DNA of 64,000 nt from Candidatus Nanoarchaeia archaeon (GTDB lineage Archaea; Nanobdellota; Nanobdellia; UBA10117), in NCBI GenBank assembly GCA_049969975.1, contig JBMFNW010000001.1, forward strand, positions 232 through 64,231, written 5' to 3'. The position numbers and the translations under genes were made by a program. The notes below the pieces were generated by a model. That model saw only the letters and a list, made by a program, of their open reading frames with translations. It did no database searches and was not told the DNA's origin. This document shows, piece after piece, positions 29,959 through 62,593 of this stretch. Position 1 is the first letter of the stretch. Each line of letters opens with the position of its first letter.

Positions 29959-30348
29959 ATGAAATATTTGCGAGCACAAGATGTTGAGCAAAGAATTGCA
30001 GATATAGTTAGAGTATTAAATATGCAACATTTAGACACGAAAAGAATATTTTGCTTTAGAAGCTATGGTACAAGTTCTAAAGCAATTGCGAGATGTTATG
30101 GCTTGAGTAAAATATGGCAAGCAGCATTGCAAGCAAAACCAGCATATATCATTGAAGTTATAGCAGAACGATTTGACAATTTACCTATCGAAGAGCAAAC
30201 CAAAGTTTTAATACATGAGCTTTTGCACATACCTAAAGCTTTTGGTGGCGGCTTTAGGCATCACGATTTTGTTTGCCAGCGCAACGTCGAACATTTTTAT
30301 ATGTTATATATGCAATTGCGAAAGTCTTGCGAAAGTCTTTTTAAATAA
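29959..30348 (+). CDS. Putative zinc metallopeptidase-like protein (HExxH)
   Basis: 129 aa with a single IHELLHIP motif. Family unclear. Confidence 0.35.
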   Translation: MKYLRAQDVEQRIADIVRVLNMQHLDTKRIFCFRSYGTSSKAIARCYGLSKIWQAALQAKPAYIIEVIAERFDNLPIEEQTKVLIHELLHIPKAFGGGFRHHDFVCQRNVEHFYMLYMQLRKSCESLFK

Positions 30349-33906: not shown

Positions 33907-33960
33907 TTGCATTTTTTATTTTTTTGTGCTTTTTTGTTTGATAAGTAAAATGAATTTTAG

Positions 33961-34035
33961 TGCCCCCGACGGGATTTGAACCCATGCCGACGGCTCGAAA
34001 GGCCGCCATCCTTGACCGGGCTAGACGACGGGGGC
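33961..34035 (-). tRNA. tRNA-Glu (UUC)
   Basis: Reverse complement gives acceptor GCCCCCG/CGGGGGC. Anticodon stem GCGGC/GCCGU with loop CUUUCGA. T-arm with TTCAAAT loop. No encoded CCA. Confidence 0.75.
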
Positions 34036-34036
34036 A

Positions 34037-34141
34037 TGGGCCGGGGCGGATTCGAACCGCCGACCTGCCGCTGGCTTAGACAGAAGCTTGCGCTTCTGCG
34101 TCATATAAGACGGCCGCTCCACCAGGCTAAGCTACCGGCCC
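34037..34141 (-). tRNA. tRNA-Ile (UAU) with 31-nt canonical intron (intron 34073..34103)
   Basis: Acceptor GGGCCGG/CCGGCCC. T-arm GGCGG-TTCGAAT-CCGCC. Variable loop AGGTC. Anticodon stem GCCGU/GCGGC. Exon loop CUUAUA|..|A. Between positions 37 and 38 lies a 31-nt insert that folds into an hBHBh' motif, with a central 4-bp helix CUUA/UAAG and two 3-nt bulges with splice sites after the 2nd bulge nucleotide, plus an internal 6-7 bp hairpin (AGAAGC...GCUUCU). Confidence 0.6.
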
Positions 34142-41871: not shown

Positions 41872-43351
41872 GTTCCCGTTGATCCTGCGGGAGAGTACCG
41901 CTAGTTGGGTCCGATTAAGACATGCAAGTCTACTGGGGAGATTACATCAAACCGGTGGCGTAAGGCTGCGTAACACGTTGAGAACCTACCCTTGGGAAGG
42001 GAATAACCTCGCGAAAGTGAGGCTAATTCCCTATAGAAGACGGACCTTGGAAGAGCCCGTCTTTGAAATCCTTCGGGGCCCAAGGATGGCTCAGCGGCAG
42101 ATTAGGCAGTTGGTGGTGTAATGGACCACCAAACCTGTGATCTGTAGGGGCCATGAGAGTGGGAGCCTCCAGAGGCACACTGAGAAAAGGGTGCCAGCCC
42201 TACGGGGTGCAGCAGTCGCGAAACCTTCGCAATGCGCGAAAGCGTGACGAGGGGACCCAACGTGCCAGCTCTTTGAGTTGGCTTTTGCCATGTTTTAAAA
42301 GCATGGCGAATAAGTGAGTGGGTAAGACCGGTGCCAGCCGCCGCGGTAATCCCGGCGCCACAAGTGGTACTCACGTTTATTGGGTCTAAAGCATCCGTAG
42401 CCGTCTTGCAAAGTTTCCTGTGAAATCCGGCAGCTTGACTGTCGGGCGGGCAGGAAATACTTGCAAGATAGAGAGCGGGAGAAGTGGAGGGAATGCCCCG
42501 GGGAGCGGTAAAATGTTTTAATCCGGGGTGGACCACCGATGGCGAAGGCACTCCACTAGAACGCGTCTGACGGTGAGGGATGAAAGCTAGGGGAGCAAAA
42601 GGGATTAGATACCCCTGTAGTCCTAGCCGTAAACGCTGCCCGTTTGATGTGTGGTATTGTATAAATACCATGCGTCGTAGCGAAGGCGTTGAACGGGCCA
42701 CCTGGGGAGTACGGCCGCAAGACTGAAACTTAAAGGAATAGGCGGGGGAACACACAAGGGGTGTATGCTGCGGCTCAATTGGATTCAACGCCCGGAACCT
42801 TACCAGCAGCGACTGCAGAATGAAGGTCCTCCTGAATGGGGCACTCGACACGCAGAGAGGTGGTGCATGGCCGTCGTCAGCTCGTGCCGTGAGGTGTTCT
42901 GTTAAGTCAGAGAACGAGCGAGACCTGCGTCCTTAATTGCTATCCTTTTCTTGCGAAAGCTTGAAAAGGAGCACAATAAGGAGACTGCCGGCGTAAGCCG
43001 GAGGAAGGTGCAGGCAACGATAGGTCTGTATGCCCCGAATCTGCTGGGCTGCACGCGGCATCCATTGGTTGAGAGAACGAGCTGCAACCCCGAAAGGGGA
43101 AGCCAATCTCTTAATCTCAACCATGTTCGGATCGAGGACTGCAACTCGTCCTCGTGAAGGCGAAATCCCTAGTACACGTGTTTTAGCATAGCACGTGGAA
43201 TACGTCCCTGTTCCTTGCACTCACTGCCTGTCAACTCAACCGAGTCGGGTCAAAGTGAGGTTTTCGCTGAGGAAATCGAACTTTGGCTCGGCAAGGCGGG
43301 GTAAGTCAACACAAGGTATCTGTAGGGGAACCTGCAGATGGATCACCTCCT
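41872..43351 (+). rRNA. rrs: 16S rRNA
   Basis: 5' TTCCCGTTGATCCTGCGGGAG and 3' GGATCACCTCCT. Internal GTGCCAGCCGCCGCGGTAA. Flanked by an 18-bp perfect inverted repeat (41793..41810 vs 43351..43368), which is the processing stem. Confidence 0.9.
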
Positions 43352-43420: not shown

Positions 43421-43504
43421 GGGCCGGTAGATCAATAGTAGATCGCCGCCCTTGCAATTTCACAAGACAGGCGGAGGCTTCGGGTGCGAATCCCGACCGG
43501 TCCA
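43421..43504 (+). tRNA. tRNA-Ala (UGC) with 12-nt intron (43457..43468) in the 16S-23S spacer
   Basis: Acceptor GGGCCGG/CCGGTCC including the G3:U70 Ala identity pair. Anticodon stem CCGCC/GGCGG. Loop CTTGCA[ATTTCACAAGAC]A, where the intron 3' part CAAG pairs with exon CTTG to give a relaxed BHB. T-loop TGCGAAT (G at position 55). Confidence 0.7.
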
Positions 43505-43575
43505 TTTACTGTATTGAGGTTCCCAATCGAATGATGGGGACTGAGCAGTTTTCATGTTTGAAAACTGTGCATAGT

Positions 43576-46483
43576 TGGCCTGTTGAAGAGAATAGATGCC
43601 TTTTGGTGGATAGCTTGGCTTGAGAAGCCGAGGAAGGCCGTGGCAAGCTGCGATAAGCACGAGGTAGGCGCATGCAGCCTTTGAACTCGTGATTGCCGAA
43701 TGGGTCTTCCTTCTTTCTTCGGAAAGAGATCCGTAAGGATCGGGAACCCGCTGAATTGAAACATCTTAGTAAGCGGAGGAAAAGAAACCAAATGGGATGC
43801 CGTTAGTAGGGGCGACCGAAAGCGGCAAAGGGCGTACCGAATTCCTTTTGGTAACAAAAGGAAGATGTGGGCTGTCCAACAACCAGTTTAGACTTGCGAA
43901 GTGCTTTGGAAAAAGCCGCCGAAGAGGGTGATAGCCCCGTAGCAACATCTAAGCTGGTTGGGGCAGCAAAGAGTAGCACAAGTTGGGATTCTTGTGCGAA
44001 GATGGGTGTCAACAACATCCAACCCTAAATACTTCTCAAGACCGATAGCGCACTAGTACCGTGAGGGAATGCTGAAAAGCTCCCATGGCAGGGAGTGAAA
44101 AGAGCTTGAAACCAAAAGGCGATAGTACGACGCGGCCCCAAGGGGTTGCGTCATCCGTTTTGAAAAACGGGCCGGCGAGTTTAGCTTTGTGGCGAGCTTA
44201 ACCTGACAAAGGGGAAGCGTAGCGAAAGCAAGAGGCCCGCAGCGTTGAGCGAGGGGCGGCGTGTGCTCGCGCTATAGTCACAAGGCTAAGACCTGAAGCC
44301 TGACGAGCTAAGCCAGGCCATGCTGAAGCTCGGGTAAAACCGAGTGGAGGGCAGAAGAGGTTCTGCACATACGCGTTCTTCTGAGCCTGGTTTAGGAGTG
44401 ATATGCTCATCGAGTCAGGCGCTAGCTGGTTCCCACAGAAACAAGCCAAAGTTTGGCCTCGACAGAGCCGTCGCAAGGGGTAGAGTACAGATTGCGGAAG
44501 CAGGGGCTTCGGCTTCGTTCCGCTGTCTAACTCCGAATCCTTGCGAGGCGTAGAAGTCGGGAGTAAGTAGGCGCGGTTAAGCTGCGCAGGCGAAAGGGAA
44601 ACAACCCCGCGAATGGTTAAGGCCCTAAAGAGCTAGCTGAGTGCAAAGAAGGATTCTTCTGTCGTAGACAGCTGGGACGTAGGCTTAGAAGCAGCCATCG
44701 TCTAAGCAACGCGTAACAGCGGACCAGTTGAGACAGAAGGGTCTGAAAATGGACGGGGCTAAGCTAGCCGCCGATACCATTCTCTCCCAAAAGGGAAGAG
44801 GTATGTGGGCGCAGCCATAGAGCAGAAGCATGCTCGTGAGAGTGTGTGGATCTATGGCTGATGTGAATGCCGGTGTAAGTAGAAGCTAAGTATGGTGAAA
44901 AACCATACCAGCGAAAGGGCCAGGTTTTCTCGGCACTGCTCGTCAACCGAGAGTTAGCCGGTCCTAAGTTTGGTGCCTAAGCGTGCCAAACGAAAGGGAA
45001 GTCCGTTAATATTCGGACGCTATCAAGCCACATGCGGCGACGCAAGGTTGCTTGCCGACGCTTTGGGATAGGCTAAGGCGTACCGTCGTGCGCTTTAAGC
45101 ACCGAAGTCTGGGGAATTCTGTAATGGATAGAACCAGATGAAAGTGCGAATAGCACTCGCAAGAGTGTTTAGCTGATTCCTGGAGCCGGTGAAAAGGCAA
45201 GCAATCGTGGCTTGATAACCGTACTCAGAACCGACACAGGTGACCCTGGCCGAGTAAGCCGAGCTGTGACGGGTTGACCCCTCCCAAGGGAACTCGGCAA
45301 ATTAGCCGCGTATCTTCGGTAGAAGCGGTCTCTGCGGCATTGCTGTGAAATATCGGTGGTGCTGCAGGGTGCAATGACAAGGGGGATCCGACTGTTTAAC
45401 AAAAACGTAGCTAAGCGCAAAGTCTAAACGGCTTTGTACGCTTGGTGATTCCTGCCCAGTACGGTTGCCTGAAACTCCGGTCCAACGGAGCTAAGGGCCC
45501 GTAAACGGCGGAGGTAACTCTGACCTTCTTAAGGTAGCGAAATGCCTTGTCACTTAATTGGTGACGTGCATGAAGGGCTAACGAGATCCCCACTGTCCCT
45601 GGGAGGAACCCGACGAATTTTCTCTTCTGGCGAACAGGCCAGAGACCTCCAGCGGGAAATGAAGACCCCGTAGACCTTTACTGCAGCCTGTTGCTGCGGT
45701 TTGTTTGGCGCTGCATAGAGTAGCTGGGACCCGTTTGCAGTTGCTTCTTTCGGGAAGCAATGAGGGGAAAGTGTAACACCAGCCTTCTCTAAGCAGATCG
45801 CTTACCCTTATGGGGACACCTTCAGGTGGGCAGTTTTGCTGGGGCGGCAACCTTCCGAAAAGATATCGGAAGGATCTAATGATCGGCTCACCAGGCTTGG
45901 AAACCCTGGGTAGAGGAAAAGGCTAAAAGCCGGTCTGACTCGGTCCTAAACAGCGAGGGTCCGAGACGCGAAAGCGAGGCCTAGCGAACATAGGTGTCAC
46001 TTTTGTTGAGCGCCCTATCTGATAGAAAAGGTACCTCGGGGATAACTGAGTCGTGCCGAGCAAGAGTACACATCGACCTCGGCGCTTGCTTCTTCGCTGT
46101 CGGCTTTGCCTAGCTTGGCTGTGTACAAGCAGCCAAGAGTGCAGGTGTTCACTGATTAAAAGGCATCATGAGCTGGGTTCACAACGTCGTGAGACAGTTG
46201 GTGTACAATCTGCTGGAGGTGCATAGGGTCTGAGGAGAAGGCAGTTTAAGTACGAAAGGAACAAACTGTCCGCGCCTCTGGTGTACGGGCTATCTGATAA
46301 GGTAGGCCCGGCAGCTACGCGCGTCGGGATAAGCTCTGAAGGCATCTAAGAGCGAAGCCCGCCCCAAAAAGAGACCCTAGGAGCTACCCTAGATGAGGGT
46401 GTTGATAGGACTGGGGTGTACGAGCCAAGGTAACGAGGCTTTCAGCCCGCAGTTACTAATCGCTCCGCTTCTCTAAACAGGCC
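43576..46483 (+). rRNA. rrl: 23S rRNA
   Basis: 5' region GGTGGATAGCTTGGC...GAAGGCCGTGGCAAGCTGCGATAAGC. The 3' region ends ...AGTTACTAATCGCTCCGCTTCTCTAAACAGGCC, which pairs with the 5' GGCCTGTTGAAGAGAA (helix 1). Boundaries about +/-15 nt. Confidence 0.85.
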
Positions 46484-46639
46484 AATTATGCATAGTTTTC
46501 ACTTTTCTCATTATTTTCTCATAATTTTTTTCTTAATTTTATTCTCAACAATTAAAATTCCCAAAACAAGTTTGTCTAAAGCAAATTTCTTTAAAGCACA
46601 AAAGCAAATTTTTTAAATTATGTTTTTAATTCTAAATTT

Positions 46640-46900
46640 GGAGACAAAGCCAGCAAACTTTCGCAGCAAAAGCTGTGAGGAAAGTCTGCCCATCCAAAAG
46701 CTCAAAAGGTCTTGGAAAGGACCAGGCAAACACAGAAATACACAAACTGCGTCGCAGGATGATATATTGACTTTGGCGCAGATTTGGTGAAAATGTTTGC
46801 CAGAGCGGATGCAAGTCTAAAAGACGCTAAGTAGAATGTTTGCACAACCTTCCTTCAATTGAAGGGGTTGCAACAGAAGGCAGCTTATGGCTTTGTCTCC
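46640..46900 (+). ncRNA. rnpB: RNase P RNA (reduced, about 261 nt)
   Basis: Perfect 12-bp terminal helix (GGAGACAAAGCC ... GGCTTTGTCTCC). P4 halves GAGGAAAGTCTGCCC and ACAGAAGGCAGCTTATGGC match universal RNase P CR-I and CR-V. Lies 157 nt downstream of the 23S. Confidence 0.75.
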
Positions 46901-46935
46901 ACTAACTTTTTAAATTGTGTTCTTTATCTAAATTT

Positions 46936-57657: not shown

Positions 57658-58308
57658 TTATCCACAATATTTTTGATACCTGCAAGGTGTGCATTTTTCA
57701 GAATACAAAGGTTTTGGTTCTTTTCCACGCAAAATTTCTTCGATACTCGTGACAGTGTTTTCAACTAAATTTTTAGCATCGTCTGTATACTTTTCCTGCC
57801 AAAATATTTGTTTACTGTTAATATCTCTGATTGAACCTACTAAAGGTTTATTTGGTTCTAGTTTTTTATTTTCAAAAATATCTTTTGTAAAAGCATAGCA
57901 ATAGCCCCAAACTTGTAATTTTTGGCCAGGCCAAATTTGATTTTTAATTGGCTTATCCTCAACAATTAAAATTTCATTTGGAGAAATTTGTATTTCATCA
58001 ATTTTTCCTTTTAACTTTTTACTTTCAACTTCTAAATCCCTTATAATCACTGTGCGGCTTTGAGCTAGTTCAAAAGCTTCTTCTAAAGACATCGGTATTG
58101 CTTGAGCATAATGTTCTAAATCTAAAGCTTTATGAGCTGCTTGGCCAGCCAAAATTTCTGTTGTTGGTTTTGCTTTTATACCACGTACAAATTTCAAATA
58201 AATTTGTCTTTTACAATACTCGTGCTCAGAAAGTGCACTGATAGGGATTTTATACTCGCCATCTAATATTTTTTGTGCATATGTTTTAAGCATTAATTTT
58301 TTTCGCAA
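57658..58308 (-). CDS. Cas4-like/RecB-family PD-(D/E)xK nuclease with Fe-S Cys cluster (DUF83)
   Basis: N-terminal SALSEHEYCKRQIYLKF (first cluster Cys in a Cas4-like context). A D...IVEDKP core. C-terminal CTPCRYQKYC (Cx2Cx5C). 216 aa. No cas genes or CRISPR nearby. Confidence 0.55.
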   Translation of the reverse strand: MRKKLMLKTYAQKILDGEYKIPISALSEHEYCKRQIYLKFVRGIKAKPTTEILAGQAAHKALDLEHYAQAIPMSLEEAFELAQSRTVIIRDLEVESKKLKGKIDEIQISPNEILIVEDKPIKNQIWPGQKLQVWGYCYAFTKDIFENKKLEPNKPLVGSIRDINSKQIFWQEKYTDDAKNLVENTVTSIEEILRGKEPKPLYSEKCTPCRYQKYCG

Positions 58309-61310: not shown

Positions 61311-62159
61311 ATGGATTTTTTGAGAAAAAAAGCACTCATTTTTTTGCTACTAATGTTTATTTTATTTATTTTTATAATTGTTTTAATTCCTGAAAAAGAA
61401 AAAAGTTGTGATGAGCTTATTTCTGAAATTCCTAAATTAATTGAACAAGCGAAAGCAGCAAGGGCATTTTATGTTAGTAATGTTATTGATGGCGATACAA
61501 TTGTTTTGGATAATGGTAAAAAAGTTAGGTTGCTTGGAATTAATGCGCCAGAAAAAGACATGCCTTTTTATGATTCTGCCAAAAATTTCACCAAAAATTT
61601 AACATTAGGTAAAAAAGTCTATTTGGTAAGAGATTCTTCTGACAAAGATCTCTATGGACGATCTTTAAGATATGTTTTTACAGAAGATGTTTTTGTAAAT
61701 GCAGAATTACTAAAGCAAGGTTTGGCAACACTTTTCATTGTTGAGCCAAATACAAAATATGCTAAGTTATTTTCTTGTTTGGAAGAGTATGCTAGGCAAA
61801 ACAAACTTTCTATTTGGTCTAAAACAAAACATTACTCTTTAAATATCACAGTAAATTTTGATGCCCCTGGCAGCGATTCTGAAAATTTGAATGGCGAATT
61901 TGTTCAAATTTGGAATTTTGGAACAGAACCAATAAATCTTACAGGTTGGATTATAAAAGATGCAGCCAAACATATTTACAAGTTTGAAAATTTTGTTTTG
62001 CTTCCAAATAAAAAAGTAACCATTTATACTGGTTTTGGAAATGATTCTGATGAAGAATTATATTGGAATTCAGAAGCGCCTATTTGGAACAATGATGGTG
62101 ACACTGCATATTTATTTGATAATGAAGGTAATTTAGTTGCTTGGTTAACTTTTCCCTAA
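61311..62159 (+). CDS. Membrane-anchored staphylococcal-nuclease (SNase/thermonuclease)-like protein with C-terminal lamin-tail domain
   Basis: N-terminal TM. SNase motifs (VIDGDTIVL; RLLGINAPE; YGRSLRYVF). C-terminal LTD (NLNGEFVQIWNFGTEPINLTGWIIKD...TIYTG). Confidence 0.7.
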   Translation: MDFLRKKALIFLLLMFILFIFIIVLIPEKEKSCDELISEIPKLIEQAKAARAFYVSNVIDGDTIVLDNGKKVRLLGINAPEKDMPFYDSAKNFTKNLTLGKKVYLVRDSSDKDLYGRSLRYVFTEDVFVNAELLKQGLATLFIVEPNTKYAKLFSCLEEYARQNKLSIWSKTKHYSLNITVNFDAPGSDSENLNGEFVQIWNFGTEPINLTGWIIKDAAKHIYKFENFVLLPNKKVTIYTGFGNDSDEELYWNSEAPIWNNDGDTAYLFDNEGNLVAWLTFP

Positions 62160-62471
62160 CCTTTTTTCTTTGATGTATGGATACCTATTGATGTGACCAC
62201 AAGCCTTGCATATGTATTCTACTGCTTTGAGTTTTGGATTCAATTTAATTTGTACATTTTTACCTGGTTGGAGCCAAGTATAGCATTTGTGACAAAACTT
62301 TCTTCTTTGTTCTCTCGAGAATCTTAAATTAAATTTCATCGCGAGTTTTCTTGCTAAAAAAAGGTATCTTGTTGCACGATCGATATTCCCAGTTTTAGCT
62401 GCAGCTTCAGCCTCTTTAAAAAGTATGTCAATACGTTCAGAAGCAATTTTTTTCCAATCAGATTTTAGCAT
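62145..62471 (-). CDS. rpr2: RNase P protein subunit Rpr2/Rpp21
   Basis: 108 aa with N-terminal helices and a zinc ribbon (CHKCYTWL...CKACGH). Confidence 0.7.
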   Translation of the reverse strand: MLKSDWKKIASERIDILFKEAEAAAKTGNIDRATRYLFLARKLAMKFNLRFSREQRRKFCHKCYTWLQPGKNVQIKLNPKLKAVEYICKACGHINRYPYIKEKRLGKS

Positions 62472-62476
62472 AACAA

Positions 62477-62593
62477 TGCTAGCAGCTTTCCACCCTTCCC
62501 GCCTGTTCGGCAGTACAAAGTGGAACGTTGCTGGGATTCACTTCCGTGTTCGGAATGGGTACGGGTCTTGCCCCAGCACTTTGACCGCTAGCA
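62477..62593 (-). rRNA. rrf: 5S rRNA
   Basis: Reverse complement contains CCCATTCCGAACACGGAAGTGAA (loop C/helix III signature). The 5' UGCUAGC pairs with the 3' GCUAGCA (helix I). TATA-like ATATTTAAAAAT lies about 25 nt upstream on the minus strand. Ends +/-3 nt. Confidence 0.8.

Follow-up and report, generated by a model that had tools for sequence, protein, structure and literature searches.

Introduction

RNase P RNA is the RNA enzyme that trims tRNA precursors, and a reduced archaeal form of it, type M, has been known as a pattern since 2001. Type M RNAs are defined by the losses of P8 and of L15/P16/P17/P6 (PMC3579882, PMC2475606), with P8 absent in most members rather than in all, and their hosts are Methanococcales and Archaeoglobaceae. 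The type M RNA of M. jannaschii measures 252 nt, and in its holoenzyme Pop5-Rpp30 binds the catalytic domain, with P1/P9, the T-loop module and P12 serving as binding sites for Rpp29-Rpp21-L7Ae (PMC6565675); without proteins, type M RNAs show no activity in trans (PMC6565675, PMC2475606). Type T RNAs, which belong to Thermoproteaceae, escape detection by the Rfam family RF00373 (PMC3579882). In 2026, a survey covering 298 RNase P RNAs from archaea, metagenome-derived ones included, reported that P6, P16/P17 and P8 were deleted independently in multiple archaeal lineages, noted further reductions in Nanoarchaeales, and found P19, which stacks on P2 in archaea, in various archaeal clades with sporadic losses (PMC12974513). 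In Nanoarchaeum equitans RNase P is absent, the tRNAs are leaderless and their promoters lie 26-27 nt upstream (PMC10100707).

Here we describe an RNA gene downstream of the 23S rRNA in a 64-kb stretch of archaeal DNA (the window). We are confident that it encodes the RNA catalyst of a ribonucleoprotein RNase P, that its host is a DPANN archaeon of low GC content, and that it combines a type-M-like architecture with a P19-position hairpin; most likely, it is transcribed from a promoter of its own.

A shortened archaeal RNase P RNA downstream of the 23S rRNA

The 5S rRNA directly after the 23S rRNA is a common arrangement in archaea. An Rfam scan of the window placed the 16S rRNA at 41872-43351, a tRNA at 43421-43504 and the 23S rRNA at 43582-46479, followed by a match to RF00373 (RNaseP_arch) at 46642-46898 (+) with 107.1 bits (E 5.8e-29; gathering score 84 bits). 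This match spans the full model (positions 1-288) and is the one retained among the overlapping RNase P clan families. We set the gene boundaries at the ends of the closing helix P1:

46640..46900, + strand, RNase P RNA gene, 261 nt, from RF00373, the fold and the covarying helix model

The RNA thus measures 257 nt by Rfam and 261 nt by P1, shorter than the 288-position archaeal consensus, and starts 162 or 160 nt, respectively, after the 3′ end of the 23S rRNA (46479). The only 5S rRNA in the window lies at 62477-62592 (-), 16 kb away on the opposite strand, so that the RNA occupies the spot expected for an operon-linked 5S; the presence of this normal 5S also ruled out a misannotated 5S-like RNA. 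The initial annotation, made from the sequence alone, had proposed a reduced RNase P RNA of ~261 nt just 3′ of the 23S rRNA, at the usual 5S site, and had named an Infernal comparison with RF00373 as the check. Size and location agree with what we find, the comparison was positive, and no other family fitted better.

The GC content of the element is 45.6%, versus ~35% for the genome. The single-sequence fold reaches -101.5 kcal/mol (z = -7.2), a value equalled by none of 200 shuffles, and the combined two-strand P4 pattern, with a spacing of 181 nt, matches once in the window and never in 100 shuffles. The element is a true archaeal RNase P RNA of reduced length.

Relatives were collected with a search for P4 patterns of short spacing in one genome from each species, which yielded 120 loci (L001-L120). 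The closest of these, L085, comes from a bin labelled Candidatus Nanoarchaeia archaeon, a class of the phylum Nanobdellota, and is 89% identical to the window in the 23S rRNA and about 71% in the RNase P RNA. This fits an earlier guess of a DPANN host. The GC content of the window is ~35% outside the rRNAs. A metagenome scan with the P4 variant of this clade (see below) added eight loci, among which L121 and L128 are the nearest relatives (23S 94% and RNA 83% identical).

Helix anatomy

We wrote an explicit helix model from the Rfam alignment and by direct reading. All pairs listed in it are standard pairs in the window sequence, and its elements are, along the chain:

46640..46651, + strand, 5′ strand of P1, GGAGACAAAGCC, 12 perfect pairs with 46889-46900 (GGCTTTGTCTCC)
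46653..46658, + strand, 5′ strand of P2, GCAAAC, pairs with 46838-46843 (GUUUGC) by Rfam alignment and pair check
46662..46677, + strand, P3 hairpin CGCAGC-AAAA-GCUGUG, 46662-67 pairs with 46672-77
46682..46690, + strand, 5′ strand of P4 (CR-I) within GAGGAAAGUCUGCC, a pseudoknot across P2
46692-95, + strand, P5, pairs with 46807-10
between P5 and P7, + strand, J5/7, AAAA
46700-03, + strand, P7, pairs with 46803-06
46704..46707, + strand, J7/9, AAAA, site of the missing P8 (RF00373 P8 columns deleted)
46708..46723, + strand, P9 hairpin with a GGAA (GNRA-type) loop, 46708-13 pairs with 46718-23
46725..46801, + strand, core of the specificity domain, from the Rfam alignment, covariation and invariant columns
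46725-31, + strand, P10/11, pairs with 46795-801
within 46725..46801, + strand, J11/12, ACAGAAAUA (CR-II)
46743-53, + strand, P12 with a K-turn-like GAUGAU...UGA motif, pairs with 46775-86
within 46725..46801, + strand, J12/11, GUGAAAAU (CR-III)
46811..46837, + strand, J5/15 (GCAAG), minimal P15 and J15/2 (GCUAAGUAGAAU), without L15, P16, P17 and P6
46815-18, + strand, P15 hairpin of 4 bp with a 3-nt loop, pairs with 46822-25, pairs covary
46845..46870, + strand, extra hairpin at the P19 position, 46845-56 pairs with 46861-70

The perfect 12-bp closing helix that had been described from the sequence holds, GGAGACAAAGCC being the exact reverse complement of GGCTTTGTCTCC, and so do both P4 signatures, GAGGAAAGTC at 46677-46686 and ACAGAAGGCAGCTTA at 46873-46887. 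Both strands of P4 were found (CR-I, GAGGAAAGUC, and CR-V, ACAGAAGG..GCUUA), with 46682-84 and 46686-90 pairing with 46879-86. At one position of this helix the window clade has U-A in place of the usual C-G, a compensated change. In the specificity domain, the ATGA and TGAAA columns are invariant in alignments of relatives. The GAUGAU...UGA motif of P12 aligns with the K-turn region of RF00373, and L7Ae may bind here.

Covariation support for the helix model

Pairs were counted in an alignment (A3) of ten related RNAs that are 53-83% identical to the window RNA. In total, 77.7% of the cells were paired, compared with 63.4 ± 1.1% when partners were shuffled, a control that ignores relatedness and whose result is not a probability, and 34-48% when partners were slid by 1-3 columns. 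The observed pairing thus lay above all 500 shuffles and all slid controls, and both sides changed in 54 of the 77 pairs. The cleanest helices were P9 (98% paired, with 6/6 pairs covarying), P15, P5 and P4, for which all 8 pairs were 100% paired in the 10 sequences. In the stretch that holds P5 and P7, helix 6 of the pair count was 97% paired, and P3 showed both-side changes in 5/6 pairs.

Lower pair counts (48-70%) were obtained for P1, P2 and P12 because MAFFT shifts parts of them; P2 covariation, for example, is weakly visible in the MAFFT alignment. Compensation in all three helices was seen directly when the window was inspected against L085, and compensatory changes in P1 also occur across a 24-sequence alignment (A2). 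Among 24 DPANN-type RNAs, P1, P4, P9 and P15 covary. With the MAFFT alignment of 24 sequences, RNAalifold returned P1, P4, P9, P15 and a portion of P3 but no other helices, owing to misaligned variable regions, and we therefore specified the structure explicitly and counted pairs on the closer set of ten. Sizing helices from motif to motif over the 120 loci was too noisy, so that alignments and a targeted distance from J15/2 to P4 were used instead.

Losses and retained elements compared with types A, M and T

Compared with the archaeal consensus, the five pairs of P8 are deleted, leaving 4 nt (AAAA) between P7 and P9, and 34 RF00373 columns distal to P15 are missing, which comprise L15, P16 and P17 and with them the P6 pseudoknot. 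A comparison of helices had been proposed as a way of finding out which were lost, and these, P8 and L15/P16/P17/P6, are the answer. The substrate-binding (specificity) domain P9-P12 is kept, including the ACAGAAA and GUGAAA joining regions. Relative to type A, as represented by the RF00373 consensus, the window RNA is therefore a member of the same family with the same core helices (P1-P5, P7, P9-P12 and P15) and conserved regions, but it is ~30-100 nt shorter, lacks P8 and the P16/P17/P6 module, and has gained the hairpin at the P19 position.

The closest match in architecture is type M. Like the window RNA, type M RNAs are devoid of P8, L15, P16, P17 and P6, have P15 as a simple closed hairpin, and keep the specificity domain with CR-II/CR-III and the K-turn-like motif of P12. 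The sizes are also close (261 nt versus 252 nt in M. jannaschii), and the window RNA presumably depends to the same degree on Pop5-Rpp30 and Rpp29-Rpp21-L7Ae. In contrast, the hosts differ: type M belongs to Methanococcales and Archaeoglobaceae, whereas the window host is a DPANN archaeon whose nearest genome is a Candidatus Nanoarchaeia. The window RNA further differs in the 26-nt hairpin that separates the P2 and P4 3′ strands, a feature missing from the 12 Archaeoglobaceae RNAs that we checked, in the U-A for C-G exchange in P4, and in the placement of its gene after the 23S rRNA. As the host lies outside the type M lineages, the resemblance probably reflects independent reduction. Given the Nanoarchaeia host and the hairpin that Archaeoglobaceae lack, we call the RNA type-M-like in architecture rather than a member of the type M clade.

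Type T was ruled out. Although type T RNAs are also shortened archaeal RNase P RNAs, they have lost most of the specificity domain (P10-P12), whereas in the window RNA P9, P10/11, P12, CR-II and CR-III are present and covarying, and RF00373 detects it. The initial annotation had hinted at a type-T-like minimisation; it was right about the reduction, but the pattern is that of type M, with the specificity domain intact.

The RNA falls within described variation, since comparable independent losses and archaeal P19 have been published (PMC3579882, PMC12974513). A standard Rfam scan at the curated threshold finds it. What it offers is a covariation-supported type-M-like RNA outside both lineages in which type M was defined, and additional evidence that Archaea repeatedly shed P8 and P16/P17/P6 once proteins could replace their roles; knowledge of how RNase P works is unchanged by these results. 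In our scan, type-M-like short P4-to-P4 spacings (160-190 nt) were also observed in bins of ANME-1/Methanophagales, Syntrophoarchaeum and Methanolliviera, so that the distribution of short RNase P RNAs extends far outside Methanococcales and Archaeoglobaceae.

A hairpin at the P19 position

The extra hairpin at 46845-46870 consists of 26 nt (5 bp, a UU bulge, 5 bp and an AAUU loop) and sits between the 3′ strand of P2 and the ACAGAAGG of P4, at the P19 position. Its location after rather than before the 3′ strand of P2 ruled out P18. In the RF00373 alignment, 25 nt of it are scored as an insertion, and in A3 it is 88% paired with 5/9 pairs covarying. A hairpin is present at this place in most DPANN-type relatives, with lengths between about 10 and 70 nt.

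Between J15/2 and ACAGAAGG, members of the window clade have a segment of 35-47 nt, with the exception of L123 (23 nt). Among the 12 Archaeoglobaceae RNAs, it is 21-23 nt where the motif anchor worked, and the remaining ones have visibly the same short tail before ACAGAAGG. The same short segment was found in 10 ANME-1 and 10 other euryarchaeal RNAs, so there is no room for the hairpin in any of these RNAs. The P19 of bacterial type B and eukaryal RNAs occupies the same place in the chain, following P2 on its 3′ strand and preceding the P4 strand with ACAGAA, and P19 varies in length (PMC12974513), as does the hairpin between relatives of the window RNA. The likeness shown here is one of position and covariation.

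With regard to its role, the hairpin probably stacks on P2, like P19 (PMC12974513), and would prop up the thinned catalytic domain; as a conjecture, it may make up for the absent P16/P17/P6 brace. Several Iainarchaeum-type RNAs in A2 (L100, L069, L066, L088, L078, L083, L055, L080 and L075) have lost most of P12, and the GAUGAU...UGA K-turn-like motif along with it. Of these, L069, L078, L083, L088 and L100 have much longer insertions at the P19 position, up to ~70 nt. Taken together, the sequences hint that P12 and the P19-position insertion, both peripheral elements, are traded off against each other.

Protein subunits and proposed mode of action

One protein subunit is encoded in the window:

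62145..62471, - strand, Rpp21/Rpr2 RNase P protein gene, Pfam PF04032, 54.0 bits (cutoff 29.3), E 2.1e-14

It is located 5 nt downstream of the 5S gene (62477-62592, -). With the RNA after the 23S and Rpp21 after the 5S, both RNase P components of the window thus adjoin rRNA genes. Rpp29, Pop5, Rpp30 and L7Ae were not found by Pfam in the 40 ORFs that were scanned in the 64-kb window.

The RNA keeps the universal catalytic core, namely P1-P4 with the P4 pseudoknot, J5/15 and J15/2. By analogy with studied enzymes, P4 and its flanking joining regions would form the active site, J5/15 would stack on the acceptor end of the tRNA, and the CR-II/CR-III module between P10/11 and P12 would read the tRNA elbow through T-loop recognition. 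Contacts that the RNA lacks, both within itself and to the substrate, would be supplied by proteins, as inferred from the type M enzymes that have been studied, with Pop5-Rpp30 serving the catalytic domain and Rpp29-Rpp21-L7Ae the specificity domain. The gene product would then cleave 5′ leaders from pre-tRNAs as a ribonucleoprotein with Pop5, Rpp30, Rpp29, Rpp21 and L7Ae.

The order 23S rRNA then RNase P RNA recurs in DPANN relatives

Placement of the RNase P RNA after the 23S rRNA is not peculiar to the window. It occurs at 18 of the 31 DPANN-type loci, against 0 of the 69 other archaeal loci, the sample being biased because only RNAs with a short P4-to-P4 spacing were included. The linked loci comprise 15 identified by BLAST and three (L128, L078 and L083) added from Rfam scans; L121, L122 and L126 seem to represent a single sequence. 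By BLAST, none of the 69 informative Archaeoglobi, ANME-1 and other euryarchaeal loci had 23S sequence upstream of the RNA. All eight metagenome loci, which had been found through the RNA pattern alone, carry a 23S rRNA upstream on the same strand, at distances of 59 to ~1,090 nt. The linked loci also include Iainarchaeum bins, in which the 3′ region of the 23S rRNA is ~67-73% identical to that of the window. In genomes of ~1 Mb, the odds of a chance adjacency would be of the order of 1 in 1,000.

The position after the 23S rRNA is thus a synteny common to many DPANN relatives. In the open-access papers that we searched, we found no description of this linkage, and the gene order could be used as an anchor when divergent RNase P RNAs are sought in genome bins of DPANN archaea.

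Signals in the spacer

Four features bear on how the RNA is transcribed, three in the window and one in two of its relatives:

46480..46531, + strand, strand of the 23S 3′ processing stem (stem 46480-46495), then T-runs
46612..46617, + strand, TTTAAA box, candidate archaeal TATA element by consensus, with an A-rich stretch before it
46907..46911, + strand, T5 run, candidate archaeal terminator, 6 nt after P1
L121 8738-9673, + strand, homing-endonuclease-like ORF, with an equivalent in L128

All signal assignments are at the level of consensus, in a very AT-rich spacer in which promoter and terminator motifs are readily found; a scan for sigma-70 promoters and intrinsic terminators was disregarded as not meaningful for an archaeon. 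Positions 46480-46495 pair 16/16 with the 5′ flank of the 23S rRNA (43565-43580), so that the pre-rRNA must extend to ~46495. Three T4 runs and then a T7 (46525-46531) follow the stem, and a CTATGCA motif with subsequent T-runs is kept in all six tightly linked loci. The T-runs up to 46531 are likely the end of the rRNA transcript.

On the other side of the spacer, the TTTAAA box ends 22 nt before G46640. In 20 of 29 DPANN-type RNase P RNA loci, the starts of TATA-like hexamers form a sharp peak at -33 to -28. Downstream, 23 of the 29 loci have a T-run no more than 15 nt from the RNA 3′ end, and a CCAYTAAYTTTTT-like motif after P1 is kept in L085, L121, L128 and L047. Both the box and the T-run patterns hold with or without a 23S rRNA upstream. 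Most likely, judging from these motifs, the RNA gene has its own TATA-type promoter ~25 nt upstream and ends at the T5 run.

Some relatives have genes in the spacer. In L121 and L128, an ORF of 311-317 aa (a 1.07-kb gene) with its own box lies between the 23S rRNA and the RNA; it gives a weak above-cutoff match to the homing-endonuclease family PF05204 (22.3 bits versus 21.1) and contains an LLGIILADGD motif, with LAGLIDADG_3 below cutoff at 20 bits. This insert is absent from the window spacer. In the more distant L069, L078, L083 and L088, spacer ORFs are found on the opposite strand.

tRNA promoters and RNase P substrates

We also examined the spacing of such boxes at other sites in the window (17367, 28497, 34141(-), 48847(-) and 62592(-)) and at tRNAs of L085, L121 and L128. 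At tRNA-Cys, tRNA-Ser and tRNA-Gln, 22 nt separate the end of a TTTAAA-type box from the mature 5′ end, which equals the distance seen for the RNase P RNA; the 5S has 23 nt and an intron-containing tRNA 24 nt, and other spacings were seen at tRNA-Arg, tRNA-Leu and some tRNAs of the relatives. A 22-nt spacing would give leaderless or near-leaderless tRNAs. A fixed tRNA promoter distance like that of N. equitans would thus occur here despite a retained RNase P.

Two of the Rfam tRNAs, 43421-43504 (84 nt) and 34037-34141 (-) (105 nt), were missed by ARAGORN and therefore probably contain introns. The former sits in the 16S-23S spacer. Only 1 nt separates the latter from the tRNA-Glu behind it (33960-34035), and these tandem tRNAs need endonucleolytic separation.

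Alternative readings of the locus

The gene order invites the reading that the RNA is made as the 3′ part of an rRNA operon transcript (16S-tRNA-23S-RNase P RNA), in which it would replace the 5S and be processed out. Archaeal termination at T-runs is often leaky, the RNA lies on the same strand ~160 nt after the 23S rRNA, the gap is 60-155 nt in L085, L106, L005, L047, L100, L123, L124 and L125, and the order recurs in the 18 linked DPANN-type loci. However, such a co-transcript should have neither a terminator in between nor a promoter of its own, and at the level of signals the window has both: the T7 and several T4 runs come directly after the 23S processing stem, and the TTTAAA box stands at tRNA-gene distance, in a position conserved in 20/29 loci. 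Moreover, the linkage persists in relatives where simple co-transcription is implausible, as shown by the spacer gene with its own box in L121 and L128 and the opposite-strand ORFs in L069, L078, L083 and L088. We therefore regard an rRNA co-transcript as unlikely, and the earlier suggestion that the RNA probably rides on the rRNA transcript, or comes just after it, is not supported as far as co-transcription is concerned. The RNA is probably not part of the rRNA precursor, although some read-through from the rRNA operon may occur in the window and in five relatives with spacers of ~60-160 nt.

A different view would take the element for a decaying, non-functional remnant in a lineage that is heading for life without RNase P. 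The RNA is indeed reduced, and the boxes of several window tRNAs stand at a fixed, leaderless-type distance, as in N. equitans (PMC10100707). Against this, every universally conserved region is intact, compensatory changes maintain the helices among RNAs that are only 53-83% identical, the Rpp21 gene is present, and the window contains substrates that need 5′ cleavage, namely the tRNA pair 34037-34141/33960-34035 and the tRNA in the 16S-23S spacer. A remnant is thus highly improbable, and a functional RNase P RNA with its own promoter is the reading we prefer. We are similarly doubtful, if less strongly so, of a broader proposal that combines two elements: that placement after the 23S rRNA reflects a link between ribosome synthesis and the supply of RNase P RNA, and that, with tRNA promoters at a fixed, leaderless-type distance, the lineage is an intermediate toward the RNase P-free state of N. 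equitans. If it were true, the coupling would run through partial read-through or a shared regulatory neighbourhood, and the slimmed RNase P would be kept mainly for a few multi-tRNA and operon-embedded substrates.

Other genes in the window

Two further ORFs deserve mention. One, at 29959-30348 (+), matches PF18894 ('putative phage metallopeptidase') with 92.5 bits and stands between an NMD3-family gene and an eIF-1A gene. The other, at 57658-58293 (-), is Cas4/PD-(D/E)XK nuclease-like.
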